From a virus (Duplodnaviria; Caudoviricetes), in the IMG/VR virus record IMGVR_UViG_3300031867_000010, positions 1-64,000 of that record: 64,000 nt of DNA. The stretch is one strand, 5' to 3'. Position 1 is the first letter of the stretch. Every line of letters begins with the position of its first letter. Of this stretch, positions 2,869 to 53,496 are shown piece after piece. The notes under the pieces were generated by a model that worked only from the letters and a program-made list of their open reading frames with translations, searched no databases and was not told where the DNA came from. The position numbers and the translations under genes were made by a program.

Positions 2869-2877
2869 AAAGTAATT

Positions 2878-7371: not shown

Positions 7372-7555
7372 AGATAAAAAAAGAAAATAATATTTGAAAA
7401 ATAATTAAGTTGCAAGCACAGTGACATAAAAATTGTTAAAAAGAGAGGGTTGAAATATATAGCCCTCTCTTTATTTTTTTTAATAACCCATCTAAAAGCA
7501 TCAAAAAACATTCTTTATAATAACACATAGCATCTTCATGAAAGGAGTTTGTTTT

Positions 7556-32185: not shown

Positions 32186-32249
32186 ATATACAAAAAAAAA
32201 CAAATCTTTAATATTCAATTATAACTATATATAAGAAAGGATAATTATT
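32186..32249 (+). repeat. Conserved promoter/RBS cassette of the MADFN family (also 35840-35903, 44264-44326, 49034-49096 on minus; 51801-51858 on plus)
   Basis: ATAC-A9-CAAATCTTTAATATT...AAGAAAGGA...ATTATGGCT in five copies, containing AACA-N6-TA. Confidence 0.9.
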
Positions 32250-33232
32250 ATGGCTAATTTTGATGAATTATATAATCTTATAGACACATATAAGGAATCA
32301 TATGGGGGGGGGTATATGATTACTCCTTAGATTATTATACAGAAGCACAATATAGCAATGCTAAATCTATAATACAACCATTTAAGACAGAGATTAAAGA
32401 AATTAATAAAAATTTTAATATAGCTAAATCTAATAAAAATAAAATACTAGGTATGAAGTGTATAAAAGAAATGCAAAATTTGATATCAAGATTACAACAT
32501 ACTACAAATTCATTAACACCAGAAGATATTAAGAAATTTGGAATAGGATTGATTGCAAGCTTTGGAACATTAAGTGCAGGAATATTTGCATTTATATCTC
32601 GTAATACAGTAAATAAATATATTGCAAACCTGGATAATGACTTAAAAAAAATTGATGATAGTATTTTACAACTAGAAAACGAGCATCGTAAAGCAGCTTC
32701 AGATGCTGTTAATGCTAATATATATACTAACAAATTAAAGACCGATTGTTATAATAGAATAAGTAATCTCACAGACGTAATATTTGACGTCAACCTTAGT
32801 GAAAATGAAAAAAATAAATATTCCGATGAACTTCAGTCTATTGCTGAGAAACTTGATAAGGCATGTGGTGATCAAAAAAAGGCAGATAAAGAAGCTTTAC
32901 TAAAAAAAAGTAAGTGGGAAAAATCTAAGAAAGATCGAGAAGCTTTCGTGACAACCAGAGATAAGCTTAAAGCAGCCAATCGTATAGGATATGATAAAAA
33001 TGGGAAATTTAGTAAAGAAGAATTAGCACACTATAAAAAAGGAATTCGCAAAACACATGGCATAATTACTGGTATAGGTGCTGGTATAGGATCTACCGTA
33101 GGTGGTCTTACAGCATTGACTTTGAATAAACTTAATGTAAAATATAAACTATGTATAAAAAAGATGAATAAATTCTTACAAGAATGTAATACAGCTTTAC
33201 AATCAATGAAACAAGAAGTAGCTAGTTGGTAA
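32250..33232 (+). pseudogene. MADFN-family paralogue 1, out of frame at the G9 tract (32304-32312)
   Basis: As written it reads MANFDELYNLIDTYKESYGGGYMITP*. One extra G gives YGGGVYDYSLDYYTEA..., joining ORF 32453-33232 (ends QEVASW). Confidence 0.85.
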
Positions 33233-33246
33233 TGTATAGTAATTAA

Positions 33247-33285
33247 TAGAGAATATGCTAGTATATCATACTAGCATATTCTCTA
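33247..33285. terminator. Bidirectional terminator
   Basis: 18-bp inverted repeat between convergent paralogues. Confidence 0.75.
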
Positions 33286-33304
33286 ACTAATGTATCTAAT
33301 TTTT

Positions 33305-34920
33305 TTACCAGCTAGCTACTTCTCTTTGCATTATACTTAATCTCTTTTTAGCATTCTTTATAGCATTCTTTACTCTAGCAAAAGCTATCTTACCATTTAC
33401 ATTAGCTTTACTTAATCCATATCCTATACCAGCACCTATACCAGCACCTACAGTACCTCCAATAGCAGTACCTTTAAGATTAATCTTACCTTTAAGATCT
33501 TTACCATTAAACTTCTTTTTACTATTAGTATTTTTATTATTATTAGCATTATTAGCATTATTATTAGTAACATTACCAATAGGTTCTTGCTCTTCATTAT
33601 TAGTAGTATTATTAGTAACATTACCTATTGGTTCTTGTTCACTTGGTTTCTGTATATTAACATCACGATATACTTTACTACCTACTTTTGTATAGTCATT
33701 AGAACCACCCCTTTTAAGATATATTTATTAGAACCGGAACCCCTTTTTAAGATATATTTACGTCTAGGTTCACTAGGTATATTTTGTTCTTCATTATTAT
33801 TAGTAACATTGCCTATTGGTTCTTGATTAGTTGAATCTTGATTAGGATTTAGGCTATTTAGTAATTTCTTTTCTAGTTCTTGCCCTTTTTCAGCTTGTTG
33901 TGCTTTAGCTTTAGCTTTAGCTTCCTCATTAAGTCTTTCATTTTCCTCTTTAGTAATATACTTACCATCTCTAATAGTTCCTTTTACTTGTGCTGTTAAA
34001 TCATTTATTCCTTTATAAAAATTAAAATTAAAACCATTGAATCTTTTATCACAAGTATCTATAAAATTCAACAGAATTTTTTTATCACTATCAGATATTC
34101 CTGGATGACTCTTTATTACCTTTTTTGAAGGAAGCCATGAAATAATCTTATCAATACTACTAATATTTTTTTGAAGTCTGTTGGATATCATGACTTTATC
34201 TTCATCACTCACATTTTGATCTTTTAATGCATTAATATCGCGTAATACTTGGTAAACTTTCTTATTGGCATCACCTATCATACGTACATGTCGCGAAGCA
34301 CTTTTAGGAGAATACTCTTCTATTTCTTGTTTTTCTTCACCTGATAATGAATTTCGTTGCAATCTCTGACGCATATTTTGCGTATTTCGTTTTTCATGTC
34401 TTTCGTCCAAACTATTATAAAATCCACTTCTACCTGCTTCAATATCTTTTTTAGGTTTATTATGAGTGTCTCGATTAGTCTTTTTACTTGTTTCCATATT
34501 ACGTGCTTCCATATAATAATCATACCAATAATCATCATATGCACTTTCTTTTACTTCTTTACTCTTTTTATTACCTATTATATTACCTATTATACTTCCA
34601 CCTATACCACCAAGTACTGTAGTAATAGATGTTAATAATGCAGAACCATTACCAGAGAAATCATCTGCTGTCATAGAATTAACCATATTATCTAATTTAT
34701 TAATAGTATTAGACATAAGTGAAATACACTTATTGCCTAATGATTTATTCTTATGACGTCTAGCATTAGAATACTCACTATTTATTTGCTTTATTTGTAT
34801 TAATAAAGGTTTAATATCATTAGGAGTATATTGAGATTCTATATAATAATCATTATAATCATATTTATATGATTCTTTATATGTATCTATAAGATTATAT
34901 AATTCATTAAAATCAGCCAT
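33305..34920 (-). pseudogene. MADFN-family paralogue 2, frameshift near 33708-33715
   Basis: ORF 33682-34920 plus a downstream frame encoding KVGSKVYRD...QEPIGN...GTAIGG...QREVASW. One extra base at A4G4 joins them. Confidence 0.85.
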
Positions 34921-34954
34921 AATAATTATCCTTTCTTATAAAATTTATTTTATC

Positions 34955-35839
34955 TTATTTTTTTATCTTATTTAATGCAACTTTAAGTTTGTTTATTTGT
35001 TTTCTTAATCTAGCTATAAGAGTATGAACATTTCTTCTTTTCTTAAGAATTAATGCTGGTATAGTCCCACCAATAGTAGCTCCTGCACCTATATGTGCTG
35101 CTGTACCAAGACTTTGAGATTTTTGAAACTGTTTTAAAGACTTACCTTGTTTTAATGCTTTAACATAAGGATTATTTGGATTCTCTTTACTTAAATATTT
35201 TATATAGTCATCTTTTGAAACTCTATTATTCGCATTATAAAACAAATTTGCTAATGAGTCTTGTTCATACATCAATTTAGCCTCGTCTTTAACATATTTT
35301 TTATAGTGCCTATTATTAAATCCCCAGTTGTCTCCACTATATTTGGTGTCAAGTTTATCATATCTATCAGCTAACTTATCAATCTCACTATCAATCCTTT
35401 TCTTATCTTTAATATCACGATATTCAACATCATCAAATGCAAAATGTTCTGATGCACGGACATCTGTATTTCCAAAATCGTCAGCATCCTTATAATCAAG
35501 GTGCGTTTTCAGCAGAAATGTGAACATTCCACCCAATAATGCACTTACACCTATTATTACTTTACCACAAGTATCTAATGCATTAGGGTTCTTAATCTTA
35601 TCTACTAATCCATCTAATGTATTACAGTCTTTCTCCATAGTAGTAATTAATTTAGAAGCATTCCTAGTATCTCTATTCTTAATAAGATTCTTGCATACTT
35701 TAATATTATTCTTAATAGATTTAACTATAGATTTAAACTCCTCTGCCGCTGGATCAGAAGCTTCTGTATAATAATCATTATATGAATATGATTCTTTATA
35801 TGTATCTATAAGATTATATAATTCATTAAAATCAGCCAT
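34955..35839 (-). CDS. MADFN-family paralogue 3 (divergent body)
   Basis: MADFNELYNLIDTYKESYSYNDYYTEA leader and two hydrophobic Gly-rich helices. Confidence 0.85.
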   Translation of the reverse strand: MADFNELYNLIDTYKESYSYNDYYTEASDPAAEEFKSIVKSIKNNIKVCKNLIKNRDTRNASKLITTMEKDCNTLDGLVDKIKNPNALDTCGKVIIGVSALLGGMFTFLLKTHLDYKDADDFGNTDVRASEHFAFDDVEYRDIKDKKRIDSEIDKLADRYDKLDTKYSGDNWGFNNRHYKKYVKDEAKLMYEQDSLANLFYNANNRVSKDDYIKYLSKENPNNPYVKALKQGKSLKQFQKSQSLGTAAHIGAGATIGGTIPALILKKRRNVHTLIARLRKQINKLKVALNKIKK

Positions 35840-35909
35840 AATAATTATCCTTTCTTATATATAGTTATAATTGAATATTAAAGATTTGTTTTTTTTTGTA
35901 TATAAAAGG

Positions 35910-35949
35910 GGTAAAAATGGTTTAGGGAACTCCCTAAACCATTTTTACC
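35910..35949 (-). terminator. Terminator
   Basis: 19-bp inverted repeat after the 35970 gene. Confidence 0.7.
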
Positions 35950-35969
35950 ACGTTATATCTTTAAACTAT

Positions 35970-37037
35970 TTATTTCTCGTCATTACTATCTTCAGAATTA
36001 CTAACTAATTCTTTCTTCTCTTTTATAAGATTTTCGGCTTTAATTCTATCTGGGTGTAATTTATATGCAGAATTATTTTTCTTAAATCTTTCTATATTTT
36101 CTTCAGTATCAAAATAAGTATAAAATTCATTAATTACACCAACTAATGTGAACTTTTCTTCTTTGGTTGCTTTATCAGTCAATACATCTCTTAAAGCGGC
36201 AAGCAATGATGTTACTAAAATTTTAGATTCTTTTAATGATGTATCACAATATGACACATATCTGATTATAGCATAAATGAAAAAATTATTAAACGGTGCA
36301 TATCTTTCTGGAAGCAATTTCTCTTCTATATTCATAAAAAGATTATGGATATTAACAGGTATTTCAAGTTTCTCAAGTTTCATAAAATATTTCTTAAGAA
36401 TATAATCACCACGTTGTTTATCAAAAAACGTTTCAATCATATTACTTGCTTCTTTATCACCAAATTGTCTCAATCTATCAAGTATACAAGTAAAATTCTG
36501 TGATTTTTCTATTGTATCCAGATCTCTACTCATTTCTTTCTTTTTAATATCATCAGTTTCATTTTCAAGTTGTTTGCGAAGAGTTTTTATTCTTTCAAGT
36601 CTAGCCTCTCTATATTCTGGAGATCTTAATTTATCAATGTAGTTATTTGTTATATTAAGAATATCTTCTTTGGATGATCTTAAAGTTTCCCTATTTTCAG
36701 TAATAAGTTTTATATCATCTCTTAGCTCTTTTAAAAACTCTTTACACCACTCAATAAAACTTCTAGTATCAGATGGATCATTATGCAACTTATAAGATGT
36801 GAGACCATCTTTAACAGAGCCACTTTCTTCTAGCATAACTTGTAAATCCAATAGGGTAAAATTGTCAATTTCTTCATCACTCAATTTAGATACTTTTAAT
36901 GCAAATTCCCATGTGATATTCTCGTTAGCTAAATTTTCCTCAATATCGTTTTGCTTATCATTTATTATAGACTCGTATAATTTAATAAGCTCTTCAAATA
37001 GTTGAGTGTATTCACTTACTGTAGAACTACGACTCAT
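35970..37037 (-). CDS. Hypothetical helical protein
   Basis: AGGAGG RBS before MSRSST. Confidence 0.8.
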   Translation of the reverse strand: MSRSSTVSEYTQLFEELIKLYESIINDKQNDIEENLANENITWEFALKVSKLSDEEIDNFTLLDLQVMLEESGSVKDGLTSYKLHNDPSDTRSFIEWCKEFLKELRDDIKLITENRETLRSSKEDILNITNNYIDKLRSPEYREARLERIKTLRKQLENETDDIKKKEMSRDLDTIEKSQNFTCILDRLRQFGDKEASNMIETFFDKQRGDYILKKYFMKLEKLEIPVNIHNLFMNIEEKLLPERYAPFNNFFIYAIIRYVSYCDTSLKESKILVTSLLAALRDVLTDKATKEEKFTLVGVINEFYTYFDTEENIERFKKNNSAYKLHPDRIKAENLIKEKKELVSNSEDSNDEK

Positions 37038-37314
37038 ATTTAATCCTCCTTTAATCTTATTAAAAATAATGTAGCGTGATATATAATTAATTAAAGTGAT
37101 TAACATTTAAGTAATGATATGTGAATAGCAATTTTTGTCATTTAGTGCGTAGATTAATCAATTTTCCTCCTAAAAAATTTTATAATAATTTTTTTATTAG
37201 TCCTCAGATTTTGAACGAATTTGATAAGTTACTACAGAGTTGCTTGCTATTTATTTCATATCACAAAGATACTCATAGAAAAGTCTATGAGTATCTTTTT
37301 TTTTAACTTAAATA

Positions 37315-39474
37315 TTAAAAGAATAATCCACCATTATTTCCGTCATCCATTCCAAGATGATTTATTTCATCAAAAAATGATAAATCATAATCATTAGATT
37401 CATCATCAAATGTCACTATTTCTTCTTTAGATAAATTTCCAGAGCTTACATTTAATGATGAATTCATTAACTTATAAGTATCTTTTTGGGATTCCAGTAT
37501 AGCATTTCTTAAAATATTCTCATAATTTAATTGTGCTGAAATTTTTCTATCTTCTATTATAGAGTCTGCAACATCAGAAGGAAGTAATTCCTGTAATTGC
37601 TCTCTTGAATACTCTTTGAATAATCCTTTATTTTTCTCTTCAGGTTCTTTTTCTCCAGGAATATATCCAAACATTGGAAGGTTATCACCATGAATAAGGA
37701 CATACATGCCTATAAGATAAGACATGATTGAGTCATCATGGAAACCATCCCCAGCAACAATTTTTCCACTTGTTGATCTAACAAGTCTTGATATATCTCT
37801 AATTATATTTCTAGTAACAAAATCTTCTTTATGGTCTTTAATTCTATCTGCTAATATTGCAAACATTCTTTCTCTTGATTTTCCTTCAGTATACACACCA
37901 GTAAATGATTTTCTAGTAGCATGCTTAGTAAGCATAGAAGTTTGGGTATCGTATTCTTTAAATTTTTCTCCAAGCAAATCCCCAGATTTATCATAATAAA
38001 GTCTTGGTGCTATTCTTGAATTCATAAGATGATCTATAATACCATCACCTATTGAGTTTCTTTCGATGCATACAATAGCTCTAGGAATATAATTTAATAC
38101 AAGTTCGATTATAATTTGTTCATATAAAGTTTCCCCAACGAAATTACATTCAAACTCCATCACAGGTCTTAACGTATATGGATTTATTGCAGTAATTGCA
38201 TTAAAGTCTTTATTAGTACCAGTAGAACAGTCAACTCCAACTACATAAGGAATATTTGCATCTATTTCTTCATATACATCAAATCTAAAATAATCTTTTA
38301 TAAATATTTCCTTTATTGGAAGTTTCATTCTTTCGTTAATATATTCGATGTCTTCTTGATCATAAGGTGATAATGATGAACCATGTATTCTTTGAAGAAG
38401 AATTTCTCTACGGAATGTAAGTTTATCCGTAGTCATATTGTAGACATTTTCAAGCCAAGCGTTATCAAGACCAATTTGATAATATTGAAACTCTATATAC
38501 ACAATATGATTTGAATTACTTGCTGTTGCATAATTTTCCATTTCTTCATCACTCATATCATACATTTTTTCAGTCCATCTAACGCAATTATCTATTAACT
38601 TTTGTGCTGATATACCAGCTTTGGTATCGAGATCTCCTGGAGTCGATGTAAACATTCTTCCAGCAACTCCACCATTTTCTTTAGATAATCTTGCCGCAGT
38701 CTCATATGTAGATATTGAGTTATCTACAATAATATCTATATTCTCAGTAAACTCAGGCTCGTCATAATGTATTGCTGGAGACGTGAGACCTCTTGCAGTC
38801 GACATCGCTTTTGCTGGAGTAGCAGATCCAGCTTTTATAGTTACTTTATTCTTTGTTACTGGATGCTTTATACCAGTAGCATTATCCATAGCTTTCACCA
38901 TTTTTCCAGTATCATCATCTAAAATATATTCAAATCTTAAATATTCTGGAAGTAAGGATAGTTGATCTTTCATTCTTGCAAGGTTTTCTTTTGCATCTGG
39001 TACTTGCTTATTTACAGAAATAAATGTTGAGTTTGTTGTACCAAATGAATATGCCCAGCACCAGTTTGCTATAGCAGATTGGGTTTTTCCTTGCTGACGC
39101 GGAAGACAAAGCCAAGAATCAATATGATGAAAAAATAACCATGCTTGTGCTATATTTCCTCTGTTAGCTTTATACATAGATCCTTCTGGTCTACCAGGTG
39201 CTGGTATTCTTGAAACTTCCCTCAAATAATACCAAGGGTTTCTTCTACACTCTGTTACTACTCTTGATATTTCTTCCTTAGTTAAAGCACAATTACCGTC
39301 TTTATCTACTTTATACGGGTTTATTCCTACTACGGAAGGATCTTTAACTTCAAGCAAAAAATACCAATTCTTTACACCTAAAGTTTTTAAATCATTTGCT
39401 AATTGTAAAAAAGATGTATTTGATGTACCAATATCAAATATTCTATTTTTTATTCTTTTAAGTCTAGTTCCCAT
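37315..39474 (-). CDS. terL: Terminase large subunit
   Basis: NPWYY, Walker A PRQQGKT, Walker B IHYDE, coupling TSTP, nuclease VGVDCSTG..DF and HDDSIM. Confidence 0.92.
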   Translation of the reverse strand: MGTRLKRIKNRIFDIGTSNTSFLQLANDLKTLGVKNWYFLLEVKDPSVVGINPYKVDKDGNCALTKEEISRVVTECRRNPWYYLREVSRIPAPGRPEGSMYKANRGNIAQAWLFFHHIDSWLCLPRQQGKTQSAIANWCWAYSFGTTNSTFISVNKQVPDAKENLARMKDQLSLLPEYLRFEYILDDDTGKMVKAMDNATGIKHPVTKNKVTIKAGSATPAKAMSTARGLTSPAIHYDEPEFTENIDIIVDNSISTYETAARLSKENGGVAGRMFTSTPGDLDTKAGISAQKLIDNCVRWTEKMYDMSDEEMENYATASNSNHIVYIEFQYYQIGLDNAWLENVYNMTTDKLTFRREILLQRIHGSSLSPYDQEDIEYINERMKLPIKEIFIKDYFRFDVYEEIDANIPYVVGVDCSTGTNKDFNAITAINPYTLRPVMEFECNFVGETLYEQIIIELVLNYIPRAIVCIERNSIGDGIIDHLMNSRIAPRLYYDKSGDLLGEKFKEYDTQTSMLTKHATRKSFTGVYTEGKSRERMFAILADRIKDHKEDFVTRNIIRDISRLVRSTSGKIVAGDGFHDDSIMSYLIGMYVLIHGDNLPMFGYIPGEKEPEEKNKGLFKEYSREQLQELLPSDVADSIIEDRKISAQLNYENILRNAILESQKDTYKLMNSSLNVSSGNLSKEEIVTFDDESNDYDLSFFDEINHLGMDDGNNGGLFF

Positions 39475-39560
39475 TATTTTACCTCCTTAAATAAACGTAT
39501 CTGATGTTCGAAATTACATTTATATAATTTAATAAATATTTTTAAAAAGGAGGAATTGGT

Positions 39561-40259
39561 GTGAAAGGTGAGATCACATATGATGATGAAAATTTAAGAG
39601 TATATGAGATTATAACAAACGATGATGTTTTTAAAGAGAATTATAACAAGATCACTATTAAGTATAATGAAAATGATTTAATACCTATTTATATAGTAAA
39701 TAGTTATACCTATACATTTTTTGGAAAAGGTGTAAGAAAATTTACTCATGATGCATACACACATAGTGCAATTTCGTTAGACTCTTCATTAAACACATTA
39801 TATTCTTTTAATGGTGCCAATGATAAAGGTTACAGGGGATTTTCCATAGAATCCTTAAAAGGATATATACAAGTATCTCCTTTAGCAGAAATATATGTTG
39901 GTACACTTATTCTTACAAATAACGAATATAATATAATTAAAGATCACTTAAATAGACTACTAGAAAATGCTGATAAGACATCATATGCTTTTTCCAACAT
40001 TTTCAATATAGTAATTAACAGACAATCAAAAGAAAATGAATTTAGAATGGTATGTTCACAATTTGTAAATTCATTACTAAAATTTATAAATGTTGATGCT
40101 AGTAATAAAGCTTCATCTTTAACAAGACCAGAGGATTTACGTTATTCTTTAAATAAAAGAATATTTAAAGTATTTGAAGGATACGCAACTGATTACGATT
40201 ATAGACAAACTAATAGATTTGTCGATAAACTTAAATTAATGATGAGAGGTAAGAGGTAA
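39561..40259 (+). CDS. Permuted papain-like (NlpC/P60, YiiX/YebB-type) hydrolase
   Basis: YTHSAI (His) precedes Y...MVCSQFV (Cys). GTG start after AGGAGG. Confidence 0.7.
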   Translation: MKGEITYDDENLRVYEIITNDDVFKENYNKITIKYNENDLIPIYIVNSYTYTFFGKGVRKFTHDAYTHSAISLDSSLNTLYSFNGANDKGYRGFSIESLKGYIQVSPLAEIYVGTLILTNNEYNIIKDHLNRLLENADKTSYAFSNIFNIVINRQSKENEFRMVCSQFVNSLLKFINVDASNKASSLTRPEDLRYSLNKRIFKVFEGYATDYDYRQTNRFVDKLKLMMRGKR

Positions 40260-40262
40260 ACC

Positions 40263-41696
40263 ATGAATGATTTTTTCACAGAAGCATATTATGGAAAAAC
40301 ATCTACGATAAAAGAAATAGAAAAAGTTATTGGTGCATTAACTGAACTTTCAAAAAAAGATCCACTTGCAGATTATACTAATCACCCACTTAATAAAAAA
40401 CTTGAATCGTTATTCGTAAAGCAATTTGGATTTCACAAGATTGATATTGTGTGGAAAAGGTCATCTGAAAGTGGTCCTATTATTTGTACATGGGTATCAT
40501 TAGATACTGCATTAAAAGGAAAAAGTATGTATGCATTGGATACAACTGGGTATTACGATAAAAGTCATACACATGATGTATACATGATGTTATCATCAAC
40601 ATTTGCAGGTCATTATAATGTAAGTGCTGAAGAATACACAGCAGTTATATTACATGAAATCGGTCATAACTTTAGTACTGGTTTTTATAATAGAATTAAT
40701 TATTTAACATCGGTACTAAATATTGTTATGAGACCAGTATTTGGAACGAACGCTGAGGGAGAAACAGTTCAAACAGGAAATACTATTGATGTTTCACAAA
40801 CTCTAAAATTTACAGCTTTAAATGTTCTTACTACAACAAAACTTGGAAAAGGATTTTTTGCGTTATGTAATAGAATATATGATAAACTTTTAGATCAAGT
40901 TCCAGTATTAAAAGAAATTGCAAGCGTGATCACCAAAGTTGCAAATAAAGTAAATGTTGTGTGGACAAGACTTAATTTTATTAATATTTCATTGAAGCTT
41001 CCCATGGTAATTTTAATGTCACCACTAACACATTTACAACAAGTAGTATCAAGAAAAGAAGAAGCATTTGCGGATTCGTTTGCAACGGCGTATGGATATG
41101 GCGTTCCACTAAATACAGCACTTGTGAAGTTATCACGAGCTGGATATGATAAAACTGTATCTTTATTTAATTATGATAAATCTGGATTTGCAAAAATAAT
41201 CACAGATATAATGATGGCAGAACTTACTATGTTTGATGTATTTGCTTCAGGTGGTGCATCACATGGTAGTACTGGAACAAGAATTGCGACAGCAATAGAA
41301 TTAATAAATAGAGAAATTGATAATGAGCAACTTCCAACAAGTGTTAAAAAAGATTTAAAATTGCAATTAGGATCTCTTGAAAAAGTTTATAATGGATATG
41401 TTACTGCTGAATATAATGGAGATCATTTAAAAATAACAGCATTTGTTAGAAAAACTATTGAAACAGTGTTTGGAAGAAGAACAGATGTTATTGCAAAACT
41501 TTTCCCTGATTTTTATGCAGGGTATACTGAAATTTCTTACAAAGATAGAAAGCCTTTATTTAGAAAAGAATCCGTAGAAACATTTGAAGAATCTGAATTA
41601 TTTAGTTATCTTGATTATATGGTAAAAGAAGCTTACGATAATAAAATGATAGATGATTATGACATGAGTGTTCTTATGGAAATTGCCAATAACTAA
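40263..41696 (+). CDS. Zincin-like metallopeptidase (probable virion protein)
   Basis: AVILHEIGH, EEAFADSFA..YG and a downstream His (SHG...RI). Confidence 0.7.
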   Translation: MNDFFTEAYYGKTSTIKEIEKVIGALTELSKKDPLADYTNHPLNKKLESLFVKQFGFHKIDIVWKRSSESGPIICTWVSLDTALKGKSMYALDTTGYYDKSHTHDVYMMLSSTFAGHYNVSAEEYTAVILHEIGHNFSTGFYNRINYLTSVLNIVMRPVFGTNAEGETVQTGNTIDVSQTLKFTALNVLTTTKLGKGFFALCNRIYDKLLDQVPVLKEIASVITKVANKVNVVWTRLNFINISLKLPMVILMSPLTHLQQVVSRKEEAFADSFATAYGYGVPLNTALVKLSRAGYDKTVSLFNYDKSGFAKIITDIMMAELTMFDVFASGGASHGSTGTRIATAIELINREIDNEQLPTSVKKDLKLQLGSLEKVYNGYVTAEYNGDHLKITAFVRKTIETVFGRRTDVIAKLFPDFYAGYTEISYKDRKPLFRKESVETFEESELFSYLDYMVKEAYDNKMIDDYDMSVLMEIANN

Positions 41697-41698
41697 AA

Positions 41699-41742
41699 AT
41701 ATATAGATATGATGATTTGGTTACCATCATATCTATATATTT
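41699..41742. terminator. Bidirectional terminator
   Basis: ATATATAGATATGATG/CATCATATCTATATAT inverted repeat. Confidence 0.7.
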
Positions 41743-42986: not shown

Positions 42987-43045
42987 GTAACTACCAGCCT
43001 TTCTTATTATTATTCAAATGTTTTTTGGTGATGACTATTCATATA

Positions 43046-43085
43046 AAACAAGACAATGACTAATCAATTAGTCATTGTCTTGTTT
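43046..43085 (-). terminator. Terminator
   Basis: AAACAAGACAATGACTAAT/ATTAGTCATTGTCTTGTTT inverted repeat. Confidence 0.75.
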
Positions 43086-43098
43086 CTCATATAACATA

Positions 43099-44263
43099 TT
43101 ACCAACTAGCTACTTCTTGTCTCATCACTGTTAATCTCTTTTTAGCATTCTTTATAGCATTTTTTACTCTAGCAAAAGCTATCTTACCATTTACATTAGC
43201 TTTACTTAATCCATATCCTACACCAGCACCTATACCAGCACCTACAGTACCTCCAATAGCAGTACCTTTAAGATTAAATTTCTTTTTGCTATTAGTAGAT
43301 GTAGTATTACCTATTGGTTCTTGATTAGGTTGTTTATTAATATTCACAGGTCCTACACCTTTACCATTATTAGGTTGTCTACGTTGTCTTTCAGGAATAT
43401 TATCCTTTGTAAGATTTACTCTATTCATTTTGTACGGATCATTGTCTGATAAATTGTATCTATTAATATTTTCTTGACGTTGGTACATATCTGTTAAGTC
43501 ATCATAATCATTACCAATAGGATCACTTTTATCATTCATATTAATATATTGACCAGTACCTGTCGATCGTAAGTAGTCAGAGTAATAACTTTTAGCCTTA
43601 GGACCACGTTTTTTAATAACGTAATTTGATACTTTTCTATCTCCATCTGCAATACTGCTTCGGTTTTCAATCTTTTTCAAAGCTTCATCACCAGAAGCAC
43701 GTAATTCATATCTATCTGTTCCATCTGTAATTGACGGTATTGGTCCACTATATCTTACTTTAGGTTTATCTTGTTGTGTACTAGCATTACCTATTGGTTG
43801 TGGCTCAATAGGAGAAGCATTTTTTTTTAGGTTTTTTAGGTTTATTACGACGTGCTTCCATATAATAATCATACCAATAATCATAATATACACTTTCTTT
43901 AACACTATTAGCATTTTTATTACCTATTATATTACCTATTATACTTCCACCTATACCACCAAGTACTGTAGTAATAGATGTTAATAATGCAGAACCATTA
44001 CCAGAGAAATCATCTGCTGACATCCTATTAACCATGTTATCTAGTTTATTAATAGTCTTAGACATAAGCGAAATACACTTATTACCTAATGACTTATTCT
44101 TAGTCTTTCTAGCATTAGAATACTCATGGTTTATCTGTTTTATCTCAACTAATAAAGGTTTAATATCATTAGGAGTATATTGAGATTCTGTATAATAATC
44201 ATTATATGAATATGATTCTTTATATGTATCTATAAGATTATATAATTCATTAAAATCAGCCAT
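43099..44263 (-). pseudogene. MADFN-family paralogue 4, out of frame at the A9 tract (43820-43828)
   Basis: ORF 43805-44263 (N cassette) and ORF 43099-43914 (payload plus C cassette) join if A9 becomes A8, giving PKKPKKNASPIEPQ. Confidence 0.85.
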
Positions 44264-44347
44264 AATAATTATCCTTTCTTATATATAATTATAATTGAAT
44301 ATTAAAGATTTGTTTTTTTTTGTATATGAAATGCGAGTTTCATACTT

Positions 44348-45076
44348 TTAAAAGTTAGGAGTAACTTTTCTTTTCATAGCAGCTTTTAATTGTTTATACA
44401 TCGAATCAATTTCTACTAATGTATTTTTAAGTATTATCGAAACTCTTGCTTGCATTCGTGTTGTGAATGTACTAACACTTACTCCATAACCAATAGCACC
44501 TCCTATTGCTGCACCAGCACCAATGGTTTTTGCAGTTTGGAATTTTGTTGGAAGAATAAGATCTTTATTTTCTTTTTTAAATTTAGCTAAGTCTTCCTTA
44601 AGTTTTAAAGCTTCCTCAGCTGTTTTAGTGTTTTTAATCATAAGATTCGTGTCATTAGTTATTTGCTTAACATTTTTTCTATTATTTTTTATAATATCCA
44701 AATTTTGTTTTGTCCCTTTTCCAAGAAGTATAGGAACTAATATACCTGTAACAGATCCTATTAAAGTTGGTATTTGACATACTCTACTGGCAGCACTTGC
44801 AAAAGCTATAGGATCATTTTTCAAAATATCCATTTCAGTTGCGACTTTATTTACAAGTGATTTCATATTGAGTATACATTTTTCAGCGGCAACAAAATCC
44901 GAAGAGTCTAATGCTATTTTGAATTTTTTTTTATTATCGTTTATCTTTTTGACACATTCGTTTATCTTATTATAGTGCCTCAAGCCATCTCTACCATATC
45001 TGAATGCCATTCCAGCATCTACTACAGGATTTGACATTATTCGTTTTAAATCTGAAGCATCTTCCATAACTTCCAT
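44348..45076 (-). CDS. Distant MADFN-family relative (paralogue 5)
   Basis: Same helix-helix / TM1 / variable / IGAGAAIGGAIGYG / C-helix layout. Late motif at 45110-45121. Confidence 0.7.
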   Translation of the reverse strand: MEVMEDASDLKRIMSNPVVDAGMAFRYGRDGLRHYNKINECVKKINDNKKKFKIALDSSDFVAAEKCILNMKSLVNKVATEMDILKNDPIAFASAASRVCQIPTLIGSVTGILVPILLGKGTKQNLDIIKNNRKNVKQITNDTNLMIKNTKTAEEALKLKEDLAKFKKENKDLILPTKFQTAKTIGAGAAIGGAIGYGVSVSTFTTRMQARVSIILKNTLVEIDSMYKQLKAAMKRKVTPNF

Positions 45077-45130
45077 AATGTAATCTCCTTCTTATTATTT
45101 TTACTTAATTAAAAATATGTTTTGAAGAAG

Positions 45131-45171
45131 AAGTATATCAAGCAAATGTAATACATTTGCTTGATATACTT
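45131..45171 (-). terminator. Terminator
   Basis: AAGTATATCAAGCAAATGTA/TACATTTGCTTGATATACTT inverted repeat. Confidence 0.75.
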
Positions 45172-45189
45172 TAATTAAAAATTATATTT

Positions 45190-46308
45190 TTAGTCTTCCA
45201 TCATCATTTCATAAAGAACTTCAGCTTCATCTTCATCTATCTCGCCTGTATATACAGACTCTTCAATAGCTTCAACGATATTATCTTCTAATGTATTACC
45301 ATAATCGTCATAATCATCGTCATAACCATAATCATCGTAGTCATCATAGTCATCATAATCTGACTCAAAGTACATATCATAATCCATATTCATATAGCTA
45401 TCAAGATCCTCCGCAAATTCATAATACATGTCATAGTCTGCATAATCGAAAACTGATTCTTTCATAGGCTTGCCCCAGTTAGCAAGTTGACGTTCCATTT
45501 CGGTTATAGCCTTCTCAGCATCATCAAGAGATTTCATAATCTTTTTATATGCCATCTTACCAGTAACATTCAACTTAGCTAAAGCAACACCAGTACCAGC
45601 ACCGACAGCAGCACCAACTCCTGTTGAAACTCCCATTGAAACTTTGTTTGCTTTTATAAATTCTTTAGCATCACTTATTGACTTACCGAGATCGAATAAC
45701 TTATTCTTTACTGCTTGAGGTTCTTGAGATTGCGCAGCTGGAGCTGGAGCAGATCCCCCTTTTTTGTTTGCTTTGTTTGCTTTATTTGCCTTTCTATTTT
45801 CATTCCAAGTTTTGAGTCCGTCTATAAGACCTTCAGTATAAAGCTGTCCCATAGCTCTATCGTACGCCGATTCTCCAGCGTAGTATTCATCATCTAAAGT
45901 AGCTGGATCCCCAGCAGGATTCTTAGCATTCTTTTTAGCCGCTCTCCAATCCTTAAACTTACCCACACCTTTCTTACCAGCACTCCATGTTGGTATAGTT
46001 AATGCACCAACCAGTGTACCAACTGCGGTTGAAATACCAATAAGTGCAGGTGCAGCAGCATTAAGATCAGCTGCGGAAAGACCTCCTGCAAGTCTCTTAG
46101 CACTTTTAACAGCCATCTTAGCTTCTTTCAAAGCTACTTTAGCAAGAGCTTTATCACCTTGCTTAATGGCTGCTCCAAACTTCTTCTTAGCTTGTTTGAT
46201 TACTGTAACATACTGCTTAATCTGTTGGGCAATAGCCTTGCCACTAGAATTATCAGCTTCTGTATAGTAATCATCTATTAAATCATATAATTCATTAAAA
46301 TCTGCCAT
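45190..46308 (-). CDS. MADFN-family paralogue 6 with acidic D/Y-rich C-terminal extension
   Basis: MADFNELYDLIDDYYTEA leader, TM1, GVGAAVGAGTGVAL and KLNVTGKMAY. Late motif at 46353-46364. Confidence 0.85.
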   Translation of the reverse strand: MADFNELYDLIDDYYTEADNSSGKAIAQQIKQYVTVIKQAKKKFGAAIKQGDKALAKVALKEAKMAVKSAKRLAGGLSAADLNAAAPALIGISTAVGTLVGALTIPTWSAGKKGVGKFKDWRAAKKNAKNPAGDPATLDDEYYAGESAYDRAMGQLYTEGLIDGLKTWNENRKANKANKANKKGGSAPAPAAQSQEPQAVKNKLFDLGKSISDAKEFIKANKVSMGVSTGVGAAVGAGTGVALAKLNVTGKMAYKKIMKSLDDAEKAITEMERQLANWGKPMKESVFDYADYDMYYEFAEDLDSYMNMDYDMYFESDYDDYDDYDDYGYDDDYDDYGNTLEDNIVEAIEESVYTGEIDEDEAEVLYEMMMED

Positions 46309-46384
46309 AATAGTTAAATCCTTTCTATAAATTTTATTAATTTATAAAGTATTACAGAAATGTTTGTAATTCGTATCTAATTTT

Positions 46385-49033
46385 TTACCAGCTAGCTACT
46401 TCTCTTTGCATTATACTTAATCTCTTTTTAGCATTCTTTATAGCATTCTTTACTCTAGCAAAAGCTATCTTACCATTTACATTAGCTTTACTTAATCCAT
46501 ATCCTACACCAGCACCTATACCAGCACCTACAGTACCTCCAATAGCAGTACCTTTAAGATTAAATTTCTTTTTAGTATTAGTAGATGTAGTATTATCTTC
46601 ATTATTATTAGTAGCATTACCTATTGGTTCTTGATTAGGTTGTTTATTAATATTCACAGGTCCTACACCTTTACCATTATTAGGCTGTCTACGTTGTCTT
46701 TCAGGAATATTATCCTTTGTAAGATTTACTCTATTCATTTTAGGTATTTCTTGTTCTTCACTATTAGTAGCATTACCAATAGGTTCTTGTTCACTTGGTT
46801 TCTGCGTATTAGCATCACGATATACTTTGTTACCTACTTTTGTATATTTATTAGAACCAGAACCTCTTTTTAAGTTATATTTACGTCTAGGTTCACTAGG
46901 TATATTTTGTTCTTCATTATTATTAGTAACATTACCTATTGGTTCTTGATTAGGTTGTTTATTAATATTCACAGGTCCTACACCTTTACCATTATTAGGT
47001 TGTCTACGCTGTCTTTCAGGAATATTATCCTTTGTAAGATTTACTTTATTCATTTTAGGTATTTCTTGTTCTTCACTATTAGTAACATTGCCTATTGGTT
47101 CTTGATTAGTTGGTTCTTGTTTAGCAAGTTTAGGACCACGCTTAGGATTTAAAGTATTTAGCATTAAATCAGAAGTTGGAACGCCGTATCTATTTCTCTG
47201 TACATTTAAAAACTTATTCTGTGATCTAATTGTATTTAAACTATTATCACCAGATGGTTCATAGTACATATTATTGGAAGTTAAATTTCTTGAATTTGCC
47301 TTAGGCATATTTTGTTTAATATCCACATGACTTATCGGTCCTTGGTGTTCAGGTGGTTTGGGCTTGTCTTGAATTTTTTTGATATCAATGTTTCTTCTAC
47401 GGATTTCATCATTTACAGAATTCCATTGTGAAATATTATGATAGTATCTTTTACTTTCTTTTTTTGTAAGATATTTGTCAGTGAATATTGATCTATTAGT
47501 TAATGGTCTACGTTGATTAATAGTATTGTAACTTTTATCATTAATAGTATCAATATATGATTTAAGTCTTATAAGATCATTATCTGACAAAGTTTGAATT
47601 CCTGAGCTAAATGGATTAGTGCTACCTTTACCATTCCTGTACACTTTCTGCATAATATAATTAATATCTTTATTGGCTTCTTGTATCTCTTTCTTATATT
47701 GGTCTTTTGTTATATTTCTTGAAGAAGGCATTTGAGTTTTTTTATTAACTTCATCACTCATATTTTTAATAGTTTCTTTATCAAATTTATATAAAAATTT
47801 TCTAGTACGCCTGCCGTTGTTGTTCATATGAAAATCAGTGGCAGCAACTCTAATAGCATCAATCGCCTTATTATATGCCTTATAATATTCAATGTCATGC
47901 TTATCTAGTCCAGATTTTTGTAGTATTTCTTTATCCAAAAATTGTTTTATTTCATCTTTATTATGGATGTTGCCATTTTCTTTATCAATATCAATTTTAC
48001 CAAAGCCATCTATATAAACACCATCACTGCCAACTTTTAACCAAGAATATTTACGTTTTGGTGTAGTATTAGTGGTAGCATTACCAATAGGTTCTTGTTC
48101 ACTTGGTTTATTAACATCACGATATACTTTGTTACCTACTTTTGTATATTTATTAGAACCAGAACCCCTTTTTAAGTTATATTTACGTCTAGGTTCACTA
48201 GGTATATTTTGTTCTTTATTATTAGTAGCATTACCAATAGGTTCTTGTTTAGCTTGGTGTTTATTCATATCTTCCACTATTTTTAAAGCCTTATTGAATT
48301 TGATACTCAACATATCAATTTCATTATGTATATTTGTATACTTATTCTTTTTATCATTTAGCTTTGGTTTATTTTTTTTTATTATTTTAAAAAAATCTGC
48401 AATTACACTACTCTTCCCTGGTTGATTAGAATAATTTTTCATAAAACTATTAACTGCATTTTTGTCGGTTCCATTACTAGCAATTATTCTATCCAAATTA
48501 CTATTGATATGACCTATATTATATGCTAATCTTGGTATTTTATTGGTATAATAATCAAATAACTGTGGAAACTGTTCACGAGCTTCTTTTATTTTCTTAT
48601 CTTCAGAATCAGATGCTTCCATATAATAATCATACCAATAATCATCATATGTACTTTCTTTTACTTCTTTATTAGCATTTTTATTACCTATTATATTACC
48701 TATTATACTTCCACCTATACCACCAAGTACTGTAGTAATAGATGTTAATAATGCTGCTCCATTACCAGAGAAATCATCTGCTGTCATAGAATTAACTACG
48801 TTATCTAATTTATTAATAGTCTTAGACATAAGTGAAATACACTTATTGCCTAATGATTTATTCTTAGTCTTTCTAGCATTAGAATACTCACTATTTATTT
48901 GCTTTATTTGTATTAATAAAGGTTTAATATCATTAGGAGTATATTGAGATTCTGTATAATAATCATTATAATCATATTTATATGATTCTTTATATGTATC
49001 TATTAAATCATATAATTCATTAAAATCAGCCAT
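46385..49033 (-). CDS. MADFN-family paralogue 7 (882 aa, six QEPIGN modules)
   Basis: Intact N and C cassettes, with internal direct repeats of ~150 bp. Confidence 0.9.
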   Translation of the reverse strand: MADFNELYDLIDTYKESYKYDYNDYYTESQYTPNDIKPLLIQIKQINSEYSNARKTKNKSLGNKCISLMSKTINKLDNVVNSMTADDFSGNGAALLTSITTVLGGIGGSIIGNIIGNKNANKEVKESTYDDYWYDYYMEASDSEDKKIKEAREQFPQLFDYYTNKIPRLAYNIGHINSNLDRIIASNGTDKNAVNSFMKNYSNQPGKSSVIADFFKIIKKNKPKLNDKKNKYTNIHNEIDMLSIKFNKALKIVEDMNKHQAKQEPIGNATNNKEQNIPSEPRRKYNLKRGSGSNKYTKVGNKVYRDVNKPSEQEPIGNATTNTTPKRKYSWLKVGSDGVYIDGFGKIDIDKENGNIHNKDEIKQFLDKEILQKSGLDKHDIEYYKAYNKAIDAIRVAATDFHMNNNGRRTRKFLYKFDKETIKNMSDEVNKKTQMPSSRNITKDQYKKEIQEANKDINYIMQKVYRNGKGSTNPFSSGIQTLSDNDLIRLKSYIDTINDKSYNTINQRRPLTNRSIFTDKYLTKKESKRYYHNISQWNSVNDEIRRRNIDIKKIQDKPKPPEHQGPISHVDIKQNMPKANSRNLTSNNMYYEPSGDNSLNTIRSQNKFLNVQRNRYGVPTSDLMLNTLNPKRGPKLAKQEPTNQEPIGNVTNSEEQEIPKMNKVNLTKDNIPERQRRQPNNGKGVGPVNINKQPNQEPIGNVTNNNEEQNIPSEPRRKYNLKRGSGSNKYTKVGNKVYRDANTQKPSEQEPIGNATNSEEQEIPKMNRVNLTKDNIPERQRRQPNNGKGVGPVNINKQPNQEPIGNATNNNEDNTTSTNTKKKFNLKGTAIGGTVGAGIGAGVGYGLSKANVNGKIAFARVKNAIKNAKKRLSIMQREVASW

Positions 49034-49105
49034 AATAATTATCCTTTCTTATATAGTTATAATTTAAATATTAAAGATTTGTTTTTTTTTGTATATGAAT
49101 GGGGT

Positions 49106-49148
49106 AATTAAAGTAACAGCATATTTTTAATATGCTGTTACTTTAATT
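49106..49148 (-). terminator. Terminator
   Basis: AATTAAAGTAACAGCATATT/AATATGCTGTTACTTTAATT inverted repeat. Confidence 0.75.
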
Positions 49149-51720
49149 ATTTTTCTATTATAATTTCATTAACCAAATCACTTTTATCTATCTTAGATCC
49201 ATCTATACTAATTGCATCTACAGGATAGGATGAAAACATATTATTATGCGATATTATAAATAATTGCTCAGCATTTATCATTTCAAGAAGTCTTTCTATC
49301 ATAGCTATAAAATTTGATCTGTTAGATTCATCGAGTACCGAATCCAATTCATCTAAAAGCATAATATTATATTTAGACATACTCTGAAATGATATAGCAA
49401 ATGAGAGCGTTATTGAGAAAAATGATTTCTCACCATCAGAAGCATATCGTATATCTGGAATCTCCTTACCATCTTTAATAAATGGAATGGTAAAACTATT
49501 TTCATTTATATCAAATTTTGATACATACTTTTCACCACTGTATATTTGATCCAATAAATCATTTACTACACTTAGTGCCTTTTTTAAATACATATCTATG
49601 AATATTAAAGGAATCCCATCATTTGGTGACAATGAATTCTTAAGCAAAACCCAACTATCATAGAATTTTCTATAAGTCTTTAAATATTTACTTGTATTTT
49701 TAAATGTTAGTATATTAAATTCTAGTTTACTTATTTCATTAGATAAATTAACCTCATCTCTTTGAAGATTTACCTTTTTGAAGGATTTATCGTTTTCTTC
49801 TTTTAATAAGGTTTCCCTAGTTTCGACATATTCTTTATTCAATTTATATTTCTCTTCAAGTAAATCTTTTTCTTCAAGAATTTCTATATATTCATCTATA
49901 TTTTCAAGTTCAACGGAATATTTTTTATTAGTTTCAATAAGTCTATTATAATCATTTTTGTAATTATTATATTTATAATTGGATATATTTAACTTATTCT
50001 CTAAAGAAGTCTTACTATTTAATAAATAATTTACAGATGAGTTATTCACAATATTATCTTTTTCTTTTATTTTTTCATCTAATGTTACTTTCATATTTAG
50101 ATAATTTTCATAATCTGTTATAAAAGCCAGTTCATTAAAAAAATCTTTTTGATTATATATCGGTTGACATTTGGATATATTATCCAATAGCGTCTTTACT
50201 ATAAAAGATTCTTTAATATATTTTGGAAGTTTTTCAAACAAATCTTTCTTTTGTGTAAATGAATTAATCACTTCTTTTATTGTTAGGTAAGACATCCTTA
50301 TATATGAAATATACTCATCATCATAGGTTATACTGTCAAATGATAACTTACTTATATCAATAAATTCATCAATAATTTTTTTATATACACAGTTATCACA
50401 CGATGGTTTTGATTTTAAATTATATTTTGATAAAACCGACTGTATAACTTTTTTAGAAGATTTTAATTCATTATTCTCTTTATCCTTTTTAGCAGCATCC
50501 ATTATATACTCAGAAATATCTTTCTTCTTTTCTATAATATTAATCGCCTCTTTAATAGGCTTACTTCCAAAGCTATATATGTTATTTAGTGCATTTTGTT
50601 TTTCTTTTAAAAAGACTAAGGTATTATTTATATCTTCTTTCGTATAATTTATTTTCCCAGTATAATCTGCATATACAATATCAAGTTCGTTTATCTTTTT
50701 TGTGAGTTCTTTAATATAATCATCAATCCCATCAATGTCAAGGTTTAGTTCTATTTTAGATAACTGATTATTTATTTCATCCAAATCATTTTCGTATGAA
50801 TTTATCAAGTTGAGTTCATTATTTATAAATTCTTTAGATATTTTTATTTTTTCCTCATTATTAGTAAACTCTTTTAAAATATACTCTTTATCTTTTTTGA
50901 GACTTTCTATAGATTCATCATTAGTTTTTTTATTAAGTTTCAGCAATTTCTTGTAAGCATCTTCCATATCTTTTTTACATTCAACAGGGATATTAGAAAG
51001 TTTATATCTAATTAATGTAATATCCTTATCTAGTTTTGATATTGATTCTTTTAATGAAACTAAAATATCTTTTTTCTTCGTAAGTTGTTCTTTACTTTCA
51101 TCCAGATCTTTTACAGGGTTTTTATTTAGTTCATCTGTAGAATGGCTTATAAGAGTTTTTAGTGTAGACAACTCTGTATTTATTTTTTTATAGCACTTTA
51201 AATAAATATTAGTATCATCTAAAAGTTTGGACATAAAGGCTTTTCTTTCAGCACTCTTTAAATCTATCATATTTACAACACTATTCCCGAGCCTTACAAG
51301 TTTCATATACTCTTGCTCAAGTTCAAGTTCTGTTTTCACACATTCTTTAAAACTTGTGACATTACCGTTAGGGTTTAATTCTTCACCATTTTTCTTTATA
51401 AAACTTTTTACAGTATGAGTTTTCTTAGATGGTGAATAAAAATGATCTATAACATATTCGTTTTCGTTATCAATAATGACTATTTTCTTATGCCCAGATT
51501 TCCCTTCTTGTATAATTGGAAGAGCATCTCTTTCATCAATAGTTCCTAAAGTCGCAAATGGTTGTAGTTGAGAAAGTAGAACTGTTTTACCCTTACCATT
51601 TGGACCGACTATTAAACATATTTTATTTTTTGATTTATTAAAATCAATATGAATATAATCTAATTTCATTGCTGACTTTACACCAGCAAAATTTTCAAGT
51701 TCTAGTTCAGTTATTCTCAT
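49147..51720 (-). CDS. sbcC: SbcC/Rad50-like ABC ATPase (recombination exonuclease subunit)
   Basis: ENF, Walker A GPNGKGKT, coiled coil with CDNC hook, signature ASDGE, Walker B LLDELD, ISH. Confidence 0.9.
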   Translation of the reverse strand: MRITELELENFAGVKSAMKLDYIHIDFNKSKNKICLIVGPNGKGKTVLLSQLQPFATLGTIDERDALPIIQEGKSGHKKIVIIDNENEYVIDHFYSPSKKTHTVKSFIKKNGEELNPNGNVTSFKECVKTELELEQEYMKLVRLGNSVVNMIDLKSAERKAFMSKLLDDTNIYLKCYKKINTELSTLKTLISHSTDELNKNPVKDLDESKEQLTKKKDILVSLKESISKLDKDITLIRYKLSNIPVECKKDMEDAYKKLLKLNKKTNDESIESLKKDKEYILKEFTNNEEKIKISKEFINNELNLINSYENDLDEINNQLSKIELNLDIDGIDDYIKELTKKINELDIVYADYTGKINYTKEDINNTLVFLKEKQNALNNIYSFGSKPIKEAINIIEKKKDISEYIMDAAKKDKENNELKSSKKVIQSVLSKYNLKSKPSCDNCVYKKIIDEFIDISKLSFDSITYDDEYISYIRMSYLTIKEVINSFTQKKDLFEKLPKYIKESFIVKTLLDNISKCQPIYNQKDFFNELAFITDYENYLNMKVTLDEKIKEKDNIVNNSSVNYLLNSKTSLENKLNISNYKYNNYKNDYNRLIETNKKYSVELENIDEYIEILEEKDLLEEKYKLNKEYVETRETLLKEENDKSFKKVNLQRDEVNLSNEISKLEFNILTFKNTSKYLKTYRKFYDSWVLLKNSLSPNDGIPLIFIDMYLKKALSVVNDLLDQIYSGEKYVSKFDINENSFTIPFIKDGKEIPDIRYASDGEKSFFSITLSFAISFQSMSKYNIMLLDELDSVLDESNRSNFIAMIERLLEMINAEQLFIISHNNMFSSYPVDAISIDGSKIDKSDLVNEIIIEK

Positions 51721-51858
51721 AAATAACCTCCATTATAAATATAGAAATATTTACTATTATGTGAACCTTAAAATATTTATTTATGGTTATCACTCCATTT
51801 ATATACAAAAAAAAACAAATCTTTAATATTTAATTATATAAGAAAGGAAATTTGTATT

Positions 51859-53496
51859 ATGGCTGATTTTAATGAATTATATAATCTTATAAATACATAT
51901 AAAGAATCATATGGGGGGGGGGTATATAATTACTCCTTAGATTATTATACAGAATCTCAATATACTCCTAATGATATTAAACCTTTATTATCTAGTATAA
52001 AACAGATAAATAGTGAGTATAATAGTGCTAGACGTCATAAGAATAAGTCATTAGGTATGAAGTGTATTTCACTTATGTCTAATACTATTAATAACTTAAG
52101 TAGTATGGTTAATTCTATGACAGCAGATGATTTCTCTGGTAATGGTTCTGCATTATTAACATCTATTACTACAGTACTTGGTGGTATAGGTGGAAGTATA
52201 ATAGGTAATATAATAGGTAATAAAAATGTTAATAGTGTTAAAGAAAGTACATATGATAATTATTGGTATGATTATTATATTGAAAAGTTTAATCCTGAAG
52301 GTAAAGCAGATAGTGAATTAAGTGAAGAAGAACTTAAAGCATCATATGCTAAAGATAGAGAAGCTAGTCCACAAAAGGGAAAGAATAAGTATGGTGATAT
52401 TAGAGTAAAATTTGGTAAAAAAGATAAGATGATATATACAAACAAATACCCTGAAGGGAAAAAGTTTTCAGAAATGAAGTTCTTTAGTAATTTTAAGGAC
52501 GATGGTGAAGATGAAAGCGATGATAAAAATACAAGACGTGTAGTTGATAATACTTTAAGACGAGCAAGTAGTGATGGAAAGCCTCGTCAATTAACTGACT
52601 CGCAGATGAAGGCTCAGAAATCAAGATACACATATGATATTGATCCTAATACAGGTAAGAAAATAAATGTTAGAAAACAAGAAGAGTCAAAACGTCAAAG
52701 AAGTCACCCATTAAAAAATGAAGATGATCGTAAAGCATTTGGTTTGTTAATGAATAAAATTTATAAGAATGGTAATGAATTGGCTAAACAACAGGGTGGC
52801 AGTGGAGATGCTTTTGAATTAGGAATCACGACTTTATCACATGATGAGCTGAAATCTCTCAACAATTATTATCAAAACGTACCTTTAAAGACTGACTCAA
52901 ATTTCTTTGGTAGGTTTATAAGTAAAAATAAAGAAACGGATAATAGAAAAAGTAAAAAAGAAATTAGAAAAAATAATAAAAAAAATAATACAAATCAGAA
53001 AAATATTAAAGTAAATACTTATGAGGATAAAGATAACCAAGTAAAACTACGAAATGGCATTATTAAATATGAAATTGAAAGGCGTTTAAAGAACGATATT
53101 GATAATGAATATGCTGATATGGATCCTAGTCGTAGTCATGATGAAGATAAACCACAATATAAGGAACAACCTAATCAAGAACCAATAGGTAATGTTACTA
53201 ATAATACTACTAATAATGAAGATCAAGAACCTATTGGTAATGCTACTAATAATGCTAATAATAATAAAAATACTAATAGTAAAAAGAAGTTTAATGGTAA
53301 AGATCTTAAAGGTAAGATTAATCTTAAAGGTACTGCTATTGGAGGTACTGTAGGTGCTGGTATAGGTGCTGGTATAGGATATGGATTAAGTAAAGCTAAT
53401 GTAAATGGTAAGATAGCTTTTGCTAGAGTAAAGAATGCTATAAAGAATGCTAAGAAAAGATTAAGTATAATGCAAAGAGAAGTAGCTAGTTGGTAA
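51859..53496 (+). CDS. MADFN-family paralogue 8 (in frame with G10 tract at 51913-51922)
   Basis: YGGGVYNYSLDYYTES leader, N and C cassettes intact. Confidence 0.9.
   Translation: MADFNELYNLINTYKESYGGGVYNYSLDYYTESQYTPNDIKPLLSSIKQINSEYNSARRHKNKSLGMKCISLMSNTINNLSSMVNSMTADDFSGNGSALLTSITTVLGGIGGSIIGNIIGNKNVNSVKESTYDNYWYDYYIEKFNPEGKADSELSEEELKASYAKDREASPQKGKNKYGDIRVKFGKKDKMIYTNKYPEGKKFSEMKFFSNFKDDGEDESDDKNTRRVVDNTLRRASSDGKPRQLTDSQMKAQKSRYTYDIDPNTGKKINVRKQEESKRQRSHPLKNEDDRKAFGLLMNKIYKNGNELAKQQGGSGDAFELGITTLSHDELKSLNNYYQNVPLKTDSNFFGRFISKNKETDNRKSKKEIRKNNKKNNTNQKNIKVNTYEDKDNQVKLRNGIIKYEIERRLKNDIDNEYADMDPSRSHDEDKPQYKEQPNQEPIGNVTNNTTNNEDQEPIGNATNNANNNKNTNSKKKFNGKDLKGKINLKGTAIGGTVGAGIGAGIGYGLSKANVNGKIAFARVKNAIKNAKKRLSIMQREVASW

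Follow-up and report, generated by a model that had tools for sequence, protein, structure and literature searches.

A candidate poly-G ON/OFF switch in the leaders of two paralogous late genes of an uncultivated AR9-type jumbo phage

Introduction

Two paralogous late genes of an uncultivated phage carry, at the same place in a shared leader, runs of nine and ten G residues. With ten the gene is open to its end and with nine translation stops almost at once. The question that this locus raises is whether the runs act as a reversible ON/OFF switch, or whether the shorter run reflects a dead gene, a sequencing error or a site of programmed recoding.

The window, that is, the whole stretch of DNA analysed here (64,000 nucleotides), corresponds to the first 64 kb of an IMG/VR virus record of 134,577 bp (GC 29%), for which a CheckV completeness of ~55% implies a genome of ~245 kb. 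It is assigned to an uncultivated jumbo phage of the AR9/PBS1/phiKZ type, whose large terminase shares ~33% identity with those of Bacillus phages BpSp and AR9. Both types of AR9 promoter recur in the record: the late type, AACA-N6-TA, and the early type, AAAT(G)ATATATTAT-N6-G, the consensus for which has been published (PMC5312081). A megablast search with 5 kb against GenBank phages gave no match. The window also contains a gene for a head maturation protease (24850..25773, + strand), which bears on the idea of a propeptide discussed below, and an ORF of 3430 aa (7538-17830, +) whose residues ~2827-3290, towards the C-terminus, contain endolysin-like (peptidoglycan hydrolase) domains.

Results and discussion

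The G9 tract lies at 32304..32312 (+) and is out of frame. The G10 tract lies at 51913..51922 (+) and is in frame, coding for Gly-Gly-Gly and the first base of a Val codon. These positions and frames, first given in a first-pass annotation, were reproduced exactly. Both tracts start 54 nt past the ATG of two paralogues that have a late promoter, ribosome-binding site (RBS) and leader in common; the tract thus falls in codons 19-22, and the late promoter, RBS and start codon that precede it are intact.

The G10 paralogue (51859..53496, +), whose copy of the late promoter is at 51807..51830 (+) and which adjoins an SbcC-like gene, reads KESY-GGGV-YNYSL-DYYTE across the tract and is open for 545 aa. 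In the G9 paralogue an AR9-type late promoter (A9, then AACA-N6-TA; 32192..32215, +) is followed by an intact RBS and ATG, and translation from this ATG at 32250 meets a stop after 26 codons; the truncated ORF (32250..32330, +) consists of the leader MANFDELYNLIDTYKESYGGG and then the stop. The downstream frame (32312..33232, +) is open for 306 codons and has kept the N- and C-terminal cassettes of the family, and a single additional G would join the two frames.

Runs of this kind are not expected from the composition of the DNA. Dinucleotide shuffles of the window gave an expectation of 0.06 for runs of at least 8 G, against five overlapping matches observed, at the two sites. The claim that there is no other G/C run this long holds in the window, where G9 and G10 are the only ones of 8 or more. 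It does not hold for the record as a whole, which has four such runs; the two outside the window, a C10 (101942-101951) and a C8 (119170-119177), are both non-coding. Across the whole record the numbers of G/C runs tail off at a length of 6, beyond which there are single runs of 8 and 9 and two of 10.

Codon usage also sets the tract apart. GGG is the rarest Gly codon (5.9% of Gly codons) and elsewhere in the record three successive Gly residues are encoded by GGT or GGA, which puts the chance of GGG being used three times running at ~2e-4. The purity of the tract is not significant, as it is found in three cassettes of common descent (the third is on a related contig described below) and their divergence is ~10%, too little for the purity of a 10-nt run to tell. 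Having a common origin, the three cassettes are not three independent occurrences. What was found corresponds to an SSR contingency locus in two respects: each tract is a homopolymer inside an ORF, longer than the ~8 nt taken as the minimum and over-represented for the base composition, and one repeat unit separates the intact ORF of 545 aa (G10) from termination after 26 codons (G9).

The reading that we favour, and hold to be reasonably probable, is that G9 and G10 are two states of a hypermutable poly-G contingency tract in a leader that is probably cleaved, G10 being the ON state and G9 the OFF state. Slippage of DNA polymerase on the run would add or remove one G at high frequency. With G10 the gene would be in frame and with G9 translation would end after 26 codons, and the phage population would be a mixture of virions making or not making each tract-bearing member of the family. 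The head protease would probably remove the leader at a conserved YTE(S/A), downstream of the Gly-Gly-Gly-Val encoded by the tract, and the extra residues would therefore be costless to the mature protein. We infer switching, leader removal and any benefit; the sole contrast in length observed, G9 against G10, is between diverged paralogues.

Two observations make removal of the leader plausible: the phage encodes a head maturation protease, and the motif (Y/F)xE(A/S) is more frequent than expected. The sequence YTE(S/A) is conserved downstream of the tract, and the more general motif [YF][TMIL]E[AS] occurs 25 times in the whole record, compared with 7.2 ± 2.7 times in shuffles, several of the occurrences being near N-termini. 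It is a candidate cleavage motif for the head protease, unlike the S/A/G-X-E motif of phiKZ, and the leader could plausibly be a removable propeptide. The motif was also seen within the first 25 residues of several ORFs outside the family, for example at 40263 (+) in the window and at 102755 (+) and 83945 (−) in the record.

The two genes are members of a late-gene family with 12 or more representatives in the record, which have the leader MA(D/N)F(N/D)EL.. and most of which follow a near-identical late promoter. The encoded proteins have a helical N-terminal part, Gly-rich hydrophobic segments and variable middles, often with a common C-terminus. Searches of Pfam and PHROGs gave no family match at threshold for this gene family, and Atlas gave no usable match; the suggestion in the first-pass annotation that the products are virion cargo found no support, the family being without a Pfam or PHROG function. 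A profile search of 1.84 billion representative proteins revealed a few further members, from other metagenomes, none of which has a Gly run in the leader.

Alignment of the family agreed with the earlier observation that its other members have no G tract at this position. Where the tract-bearing copies read KESY-GGGV-Y(D/N)YSL-DYY, those without it have KESY-KYDYN-DYY or KESY-SYN-DYY. In the DNA, the leader contains a short palindrome whose two central bases have given way, in tract-bearing copies, to the G run, and a second insertion, of 12 nt, follows the run; at G10 each of these two changes is in frame by itself.

Tract-less members include those at 34955..35839 (−, 294 aa), 45190..46308 (−, 372 aa) and 46385..49033 (−, 882 aa), and two that are frame-broken. 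In the first of these (33682..34920, −, 412 aa) the frame is lost near 33700 (~33690-33760), where, within a 33-nt tandem repeat, one copy has an A-run of A4 and the copy next to it one of A5; the break cuts off the conserved C-terminal cassette, which continues in another frame. The second (43805..44263, −) is broken at an A9 run (43820-43828) that would be in frame as A8, and its downstream frame is the ORF at 43099-43914. Frame-broken members thus number three of ~12, two of them at sites other than poly-G, and all three have open downstream frames and conserved C-termini. As two members are broken elsewhere, the break at G9 could be one more ordinary inactivation, and plain decay and base-calling error are real rivals to a switch.

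A metagenome scan gave one related contig, L014 (Ga0326511_10002277; ~85-90% identical), on which the promoter (here with A11), the leader and the cassette all recur, the last with its G10 in frame. The payload of this cassette is the 76%-identical orthologue of the 294-aa member at 34955-35839, which has no tract in the window. G10 is therefore the in-frame length in two phages, and the family member that carries the cassette differs between related phages, as if the cassette had moved between paralogues. Comparison of the two orthologues (34955-35839, −, and L014:13070-13963) gave pS 0.12 and pN 0.11, that is, a dN/dS of ~0.95, which indicates that the family evolves fast. This suggests that the payload evolves almost neutrally or under diversifying selection, with the ORFs staying open. 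Positional orthology of L014 with the G10 locus was rejected, the upstream gene in L014 being unrelated to the SbcC-like gene, and a second metagenome match, L015, was a chance match with no G run.

Close relatives were also sought in IMG/VR. A DNA scan with the exact flanks gave no match, and protein-pattern scans with the G10 protein and with P0005, a homologue described below, found no relatives. A scan with the back-translated leader gave a single match, which was internal to an unrelated gene and was dismissed as chance. Across the flank, protein-pattern and back-translated-leader scans, no record near-identical to this phage was found.

The OFF copy is otherwise sound, a third point of agreement with a contingency locus: promoter, RBS and ATG are intact, the downstream frame is undecayed and its homologue is conserved. 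This homologue, P0005, is an intact protein of 325 aa encoded on an 84-kb contig of another metagenome sample. It is 54% identical to the frame after G9 with 100% coverage, and the N- and C-terminal cassettes are near-identical. The existence of this intact homologue shows that the broken G9 gene is a real, conserved gene. A search of a collection of 5.8 billion proteins returned only the record's own proteins and P0005.

The leader of P0005 is the same as that of L014 but lacks the tract, which must be dispensable for that gene. This fits a rival explanation, that the G9 copy is a recent and permanent pseudogene in a redundant, fast-evolving family and the tract a mutational hotspot with no selected role in switching. 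The proportion of frame-broken members, about a quarter of the family and mostly outside poly-G, is in keeping with such decay, and the dN/dS of the 35839 member and its L014 orthologue suggests weak constraint. Decayed relics of the family were, however, not seen: all three broken copies retain fully open downstream frames and conserved C-terminal cassettes. In addition, a pure G10 run in the rarest Gly codon stays in frame in two genes of two phages, and slippage will restore a G9 run at a high rate, however it arose. Permanent loss of the G9 gene is, in our judgement, unlikely.

The same intact downstream frame would be expected if the G9 were a mistake of base calling or assembly in a long homopolymer and the true length were G10, with both genes intact. 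Most platforms are error-prone on long G runs, and the in-frame length, G10, is what is found in the sister copy and in L014. On the other hand, 17 other homopolymers of at least 8 nt inside ORFs are read through in frame and the 3430-aa ORF is unbroken. The large ORFs outside the family are all intact (3430, 922, 857 and 808 aa among them), which argues against a generally error-prone assembly. The first-pass annotation had made a similar case from intact core genes and a constant A9 in the promoters. The former stands for the large non-family ORFs but is weakened by the two further family members that are frame-broken. The latter is true of the window, where A9 was found in five of five promoter copies, but elsewhere A10 and A8 occur in the record, as does the A11 of L014. 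Finally, a consensus error at such a tract usually mirrors a mixed population, which is what the switch hypothesis itself proposes. A simple miscall thus seems distinctly improbable.

The out-of-frame arrangement might instead be the designed state. Programmed recoding of the G9 copy, either by transcriptional slippage of the phage RNA polymerase or by a −1 ribosomal shift on G GGG GGG, would then give a fixed low level of product. Runs of at least 9 are known slippage sites for RNA polymerase, and G-only heptamers are poor slippery sites for the ribosome. By the logic of the sequence a −1 shift on the run would yield exactly the G10-type protein, and the G run is itself Shine-Dalgarno-like. 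Recoding is nevertheless disfavoured on two counts. The homologues do not share the out-of-frame arrangement, the sister copy and L014 being in frame at G10 and P0005 having no tract, and no convincing stimulatory structure was found 5-9 nt downstream, where there are weak AU-rich stems or pairing with the tract itself (z −1.5 to −2.5). We consider this explanation highly improbable. A prfB-like +1 frameshift was rejected, as the shift required is −1.

If the contingency reading is taken further, the tract may belong to a portable switch cassette of ~30 nt, a proposal that we put forward with considerable doubt. The cassette would consist of the G10 run at the centre of the pre-existing leader palindrome and, as its 3' part (32313..32332, + in the G9 paralogue), the anti-Shine-Dalgarno-like segment ACTCCTTAG, which is complementary to the G tract and able to pair with it. 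It would have moved among family members by recombination between promoters and leaders that are nearly identical, so that the payload subject to stochastic ON/OFF control would differ between related phages. The same slippage-based regulatory repertoire would include the poly-C tracts next to two early promoters of the AR9 type elsewhere in the record.

The segment ACTCCTTAG follows the G run in all three cassettes (window 32313-32332 and 51923-51942; L014:13134-13153) and resembles the 3' end of 16S rRNA, that is, the anti-Shine-Dalgarno. In predicted folds it pairs with the Shine-Dalgarno-like G run, with fold z-scores of only −1.5 to −2.5.

The two poly-C tracts outside the window, C10 (record 101942-101951; L010:17942-17951) and C8 (record 119170-119177; L011:15170-15177), are non-coding, and each is followed after 2-5 nt by a + strand early promoter of the AR9 type (AATGATATATTAT-N6-G). 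The C10 tract has a virion structural gene on one side and a dihydrofolate reductase gene on the other. Elsewhere this early promoter has TCCTCCTCCC or T9 in the place of C10 and C8, and the C runs may represent an upstream pyrimidine-tract element that is prone to slippage as well. An Rfam search of the regions with the C10 and C8 tracts gave no match.

Read on the C-strand, the 26 nt after the leader tracts (window 32278-32303 and 51887-51912, −) match the 26 nt after the pyrimidine tract of another early promoter, at 89976 (record ~89960-90000), at 17-18 of 26 positions; for random sequence the probability of at least 16 matches is ~0.001. The two poly-C promoters match less well (10-13 of 26). 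The tract may have entered the leader by recombination with an early-promoter region of this kind. An antisense early promoter within the leader was also considered but is not supported: its core has 4 mismatches in 14 positions, and the virion polymerase of AR9 is described as not tolerating deviations (PMC5312081). Among the late promoters, the copy at record 131356-131420 (L012:7356-7420) has a 30-nt internal tandem duplication of the AACAAATCTTTAATATTCAATTAT element, and A8 rather than A9.

Conclusions

If the tracts do switch, each burst would consist of virions that differ in which members of the late family they make. Such bet-hedging would concern proteins outside the receptor-binding class studied so far, in a clade with its own transcription machinery, and would extend phage contingency loci to jumbo phages of the AR9/phiKZ type. 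Tract length would also provide a simple handle on the role of this uncharacterised family.

Contingency genes with 5' homopolymer tracts are well known in bacteria, among them Campylobacter, Neisseria and Haemophilus. The genes described here resemble them in having a tract near the start codon, in belonging to a multi-copy, fast-evolving family and in the presence of ON and OFF copies side by side. They differ in that the replicon is a virus.

In T2, T4 and other phages, homopolymer slippage is described as causing reversible frameshifts and population heterogeneity in many classes of gene (Gomez, Barrick and Waters, bioRxiv 10.1101/2025.10.21.683753). Those loci appear to be mostly short runs in single-copy genes, established by sequencing and selection. 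The present tracts are, in contrast, candidate loci, with long G runs at a fixed position in a multi-copy family.

A close parallel is with the Fletchervirus phages of Campylobacter, T4-like phages of ~135 kb that reportedly have G runs of ~9-10 inside ORFs of an AT-rich genome. The tracts are said to lie in receptor-binding and other genes, which are switched on or off by the gain or loss of one G, and this variation has reportedly been shown experimentally. The hypermutable polyG tracts of these phages have been published (Sorensen et al. 2021, Cell Rep 35:109214, as cited in PMC10638138). Here, likewise, G runs of ~9-10 lie inside phage ORFs in an AT-rich genome. Unlike the Fletchervirus phages, the present phage is a jumbo phage of the AR9 type with its own RNA polymerases, the genes concerned form a late family of helical, Gly-zipper-like proteins, and the tract is part of a shared leader cassette; the variation is known there by experiment, whereas here we infer it from sequence. 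As the principle of poly-G switching in phages has already been published, the gain would be one of breadth and not of a new mechanism. What sets the present case apart is its setting: an AR9-type phage, a family that is neither fibre nor receptor-binding, and a cassette that has apparently moved between paralogues.
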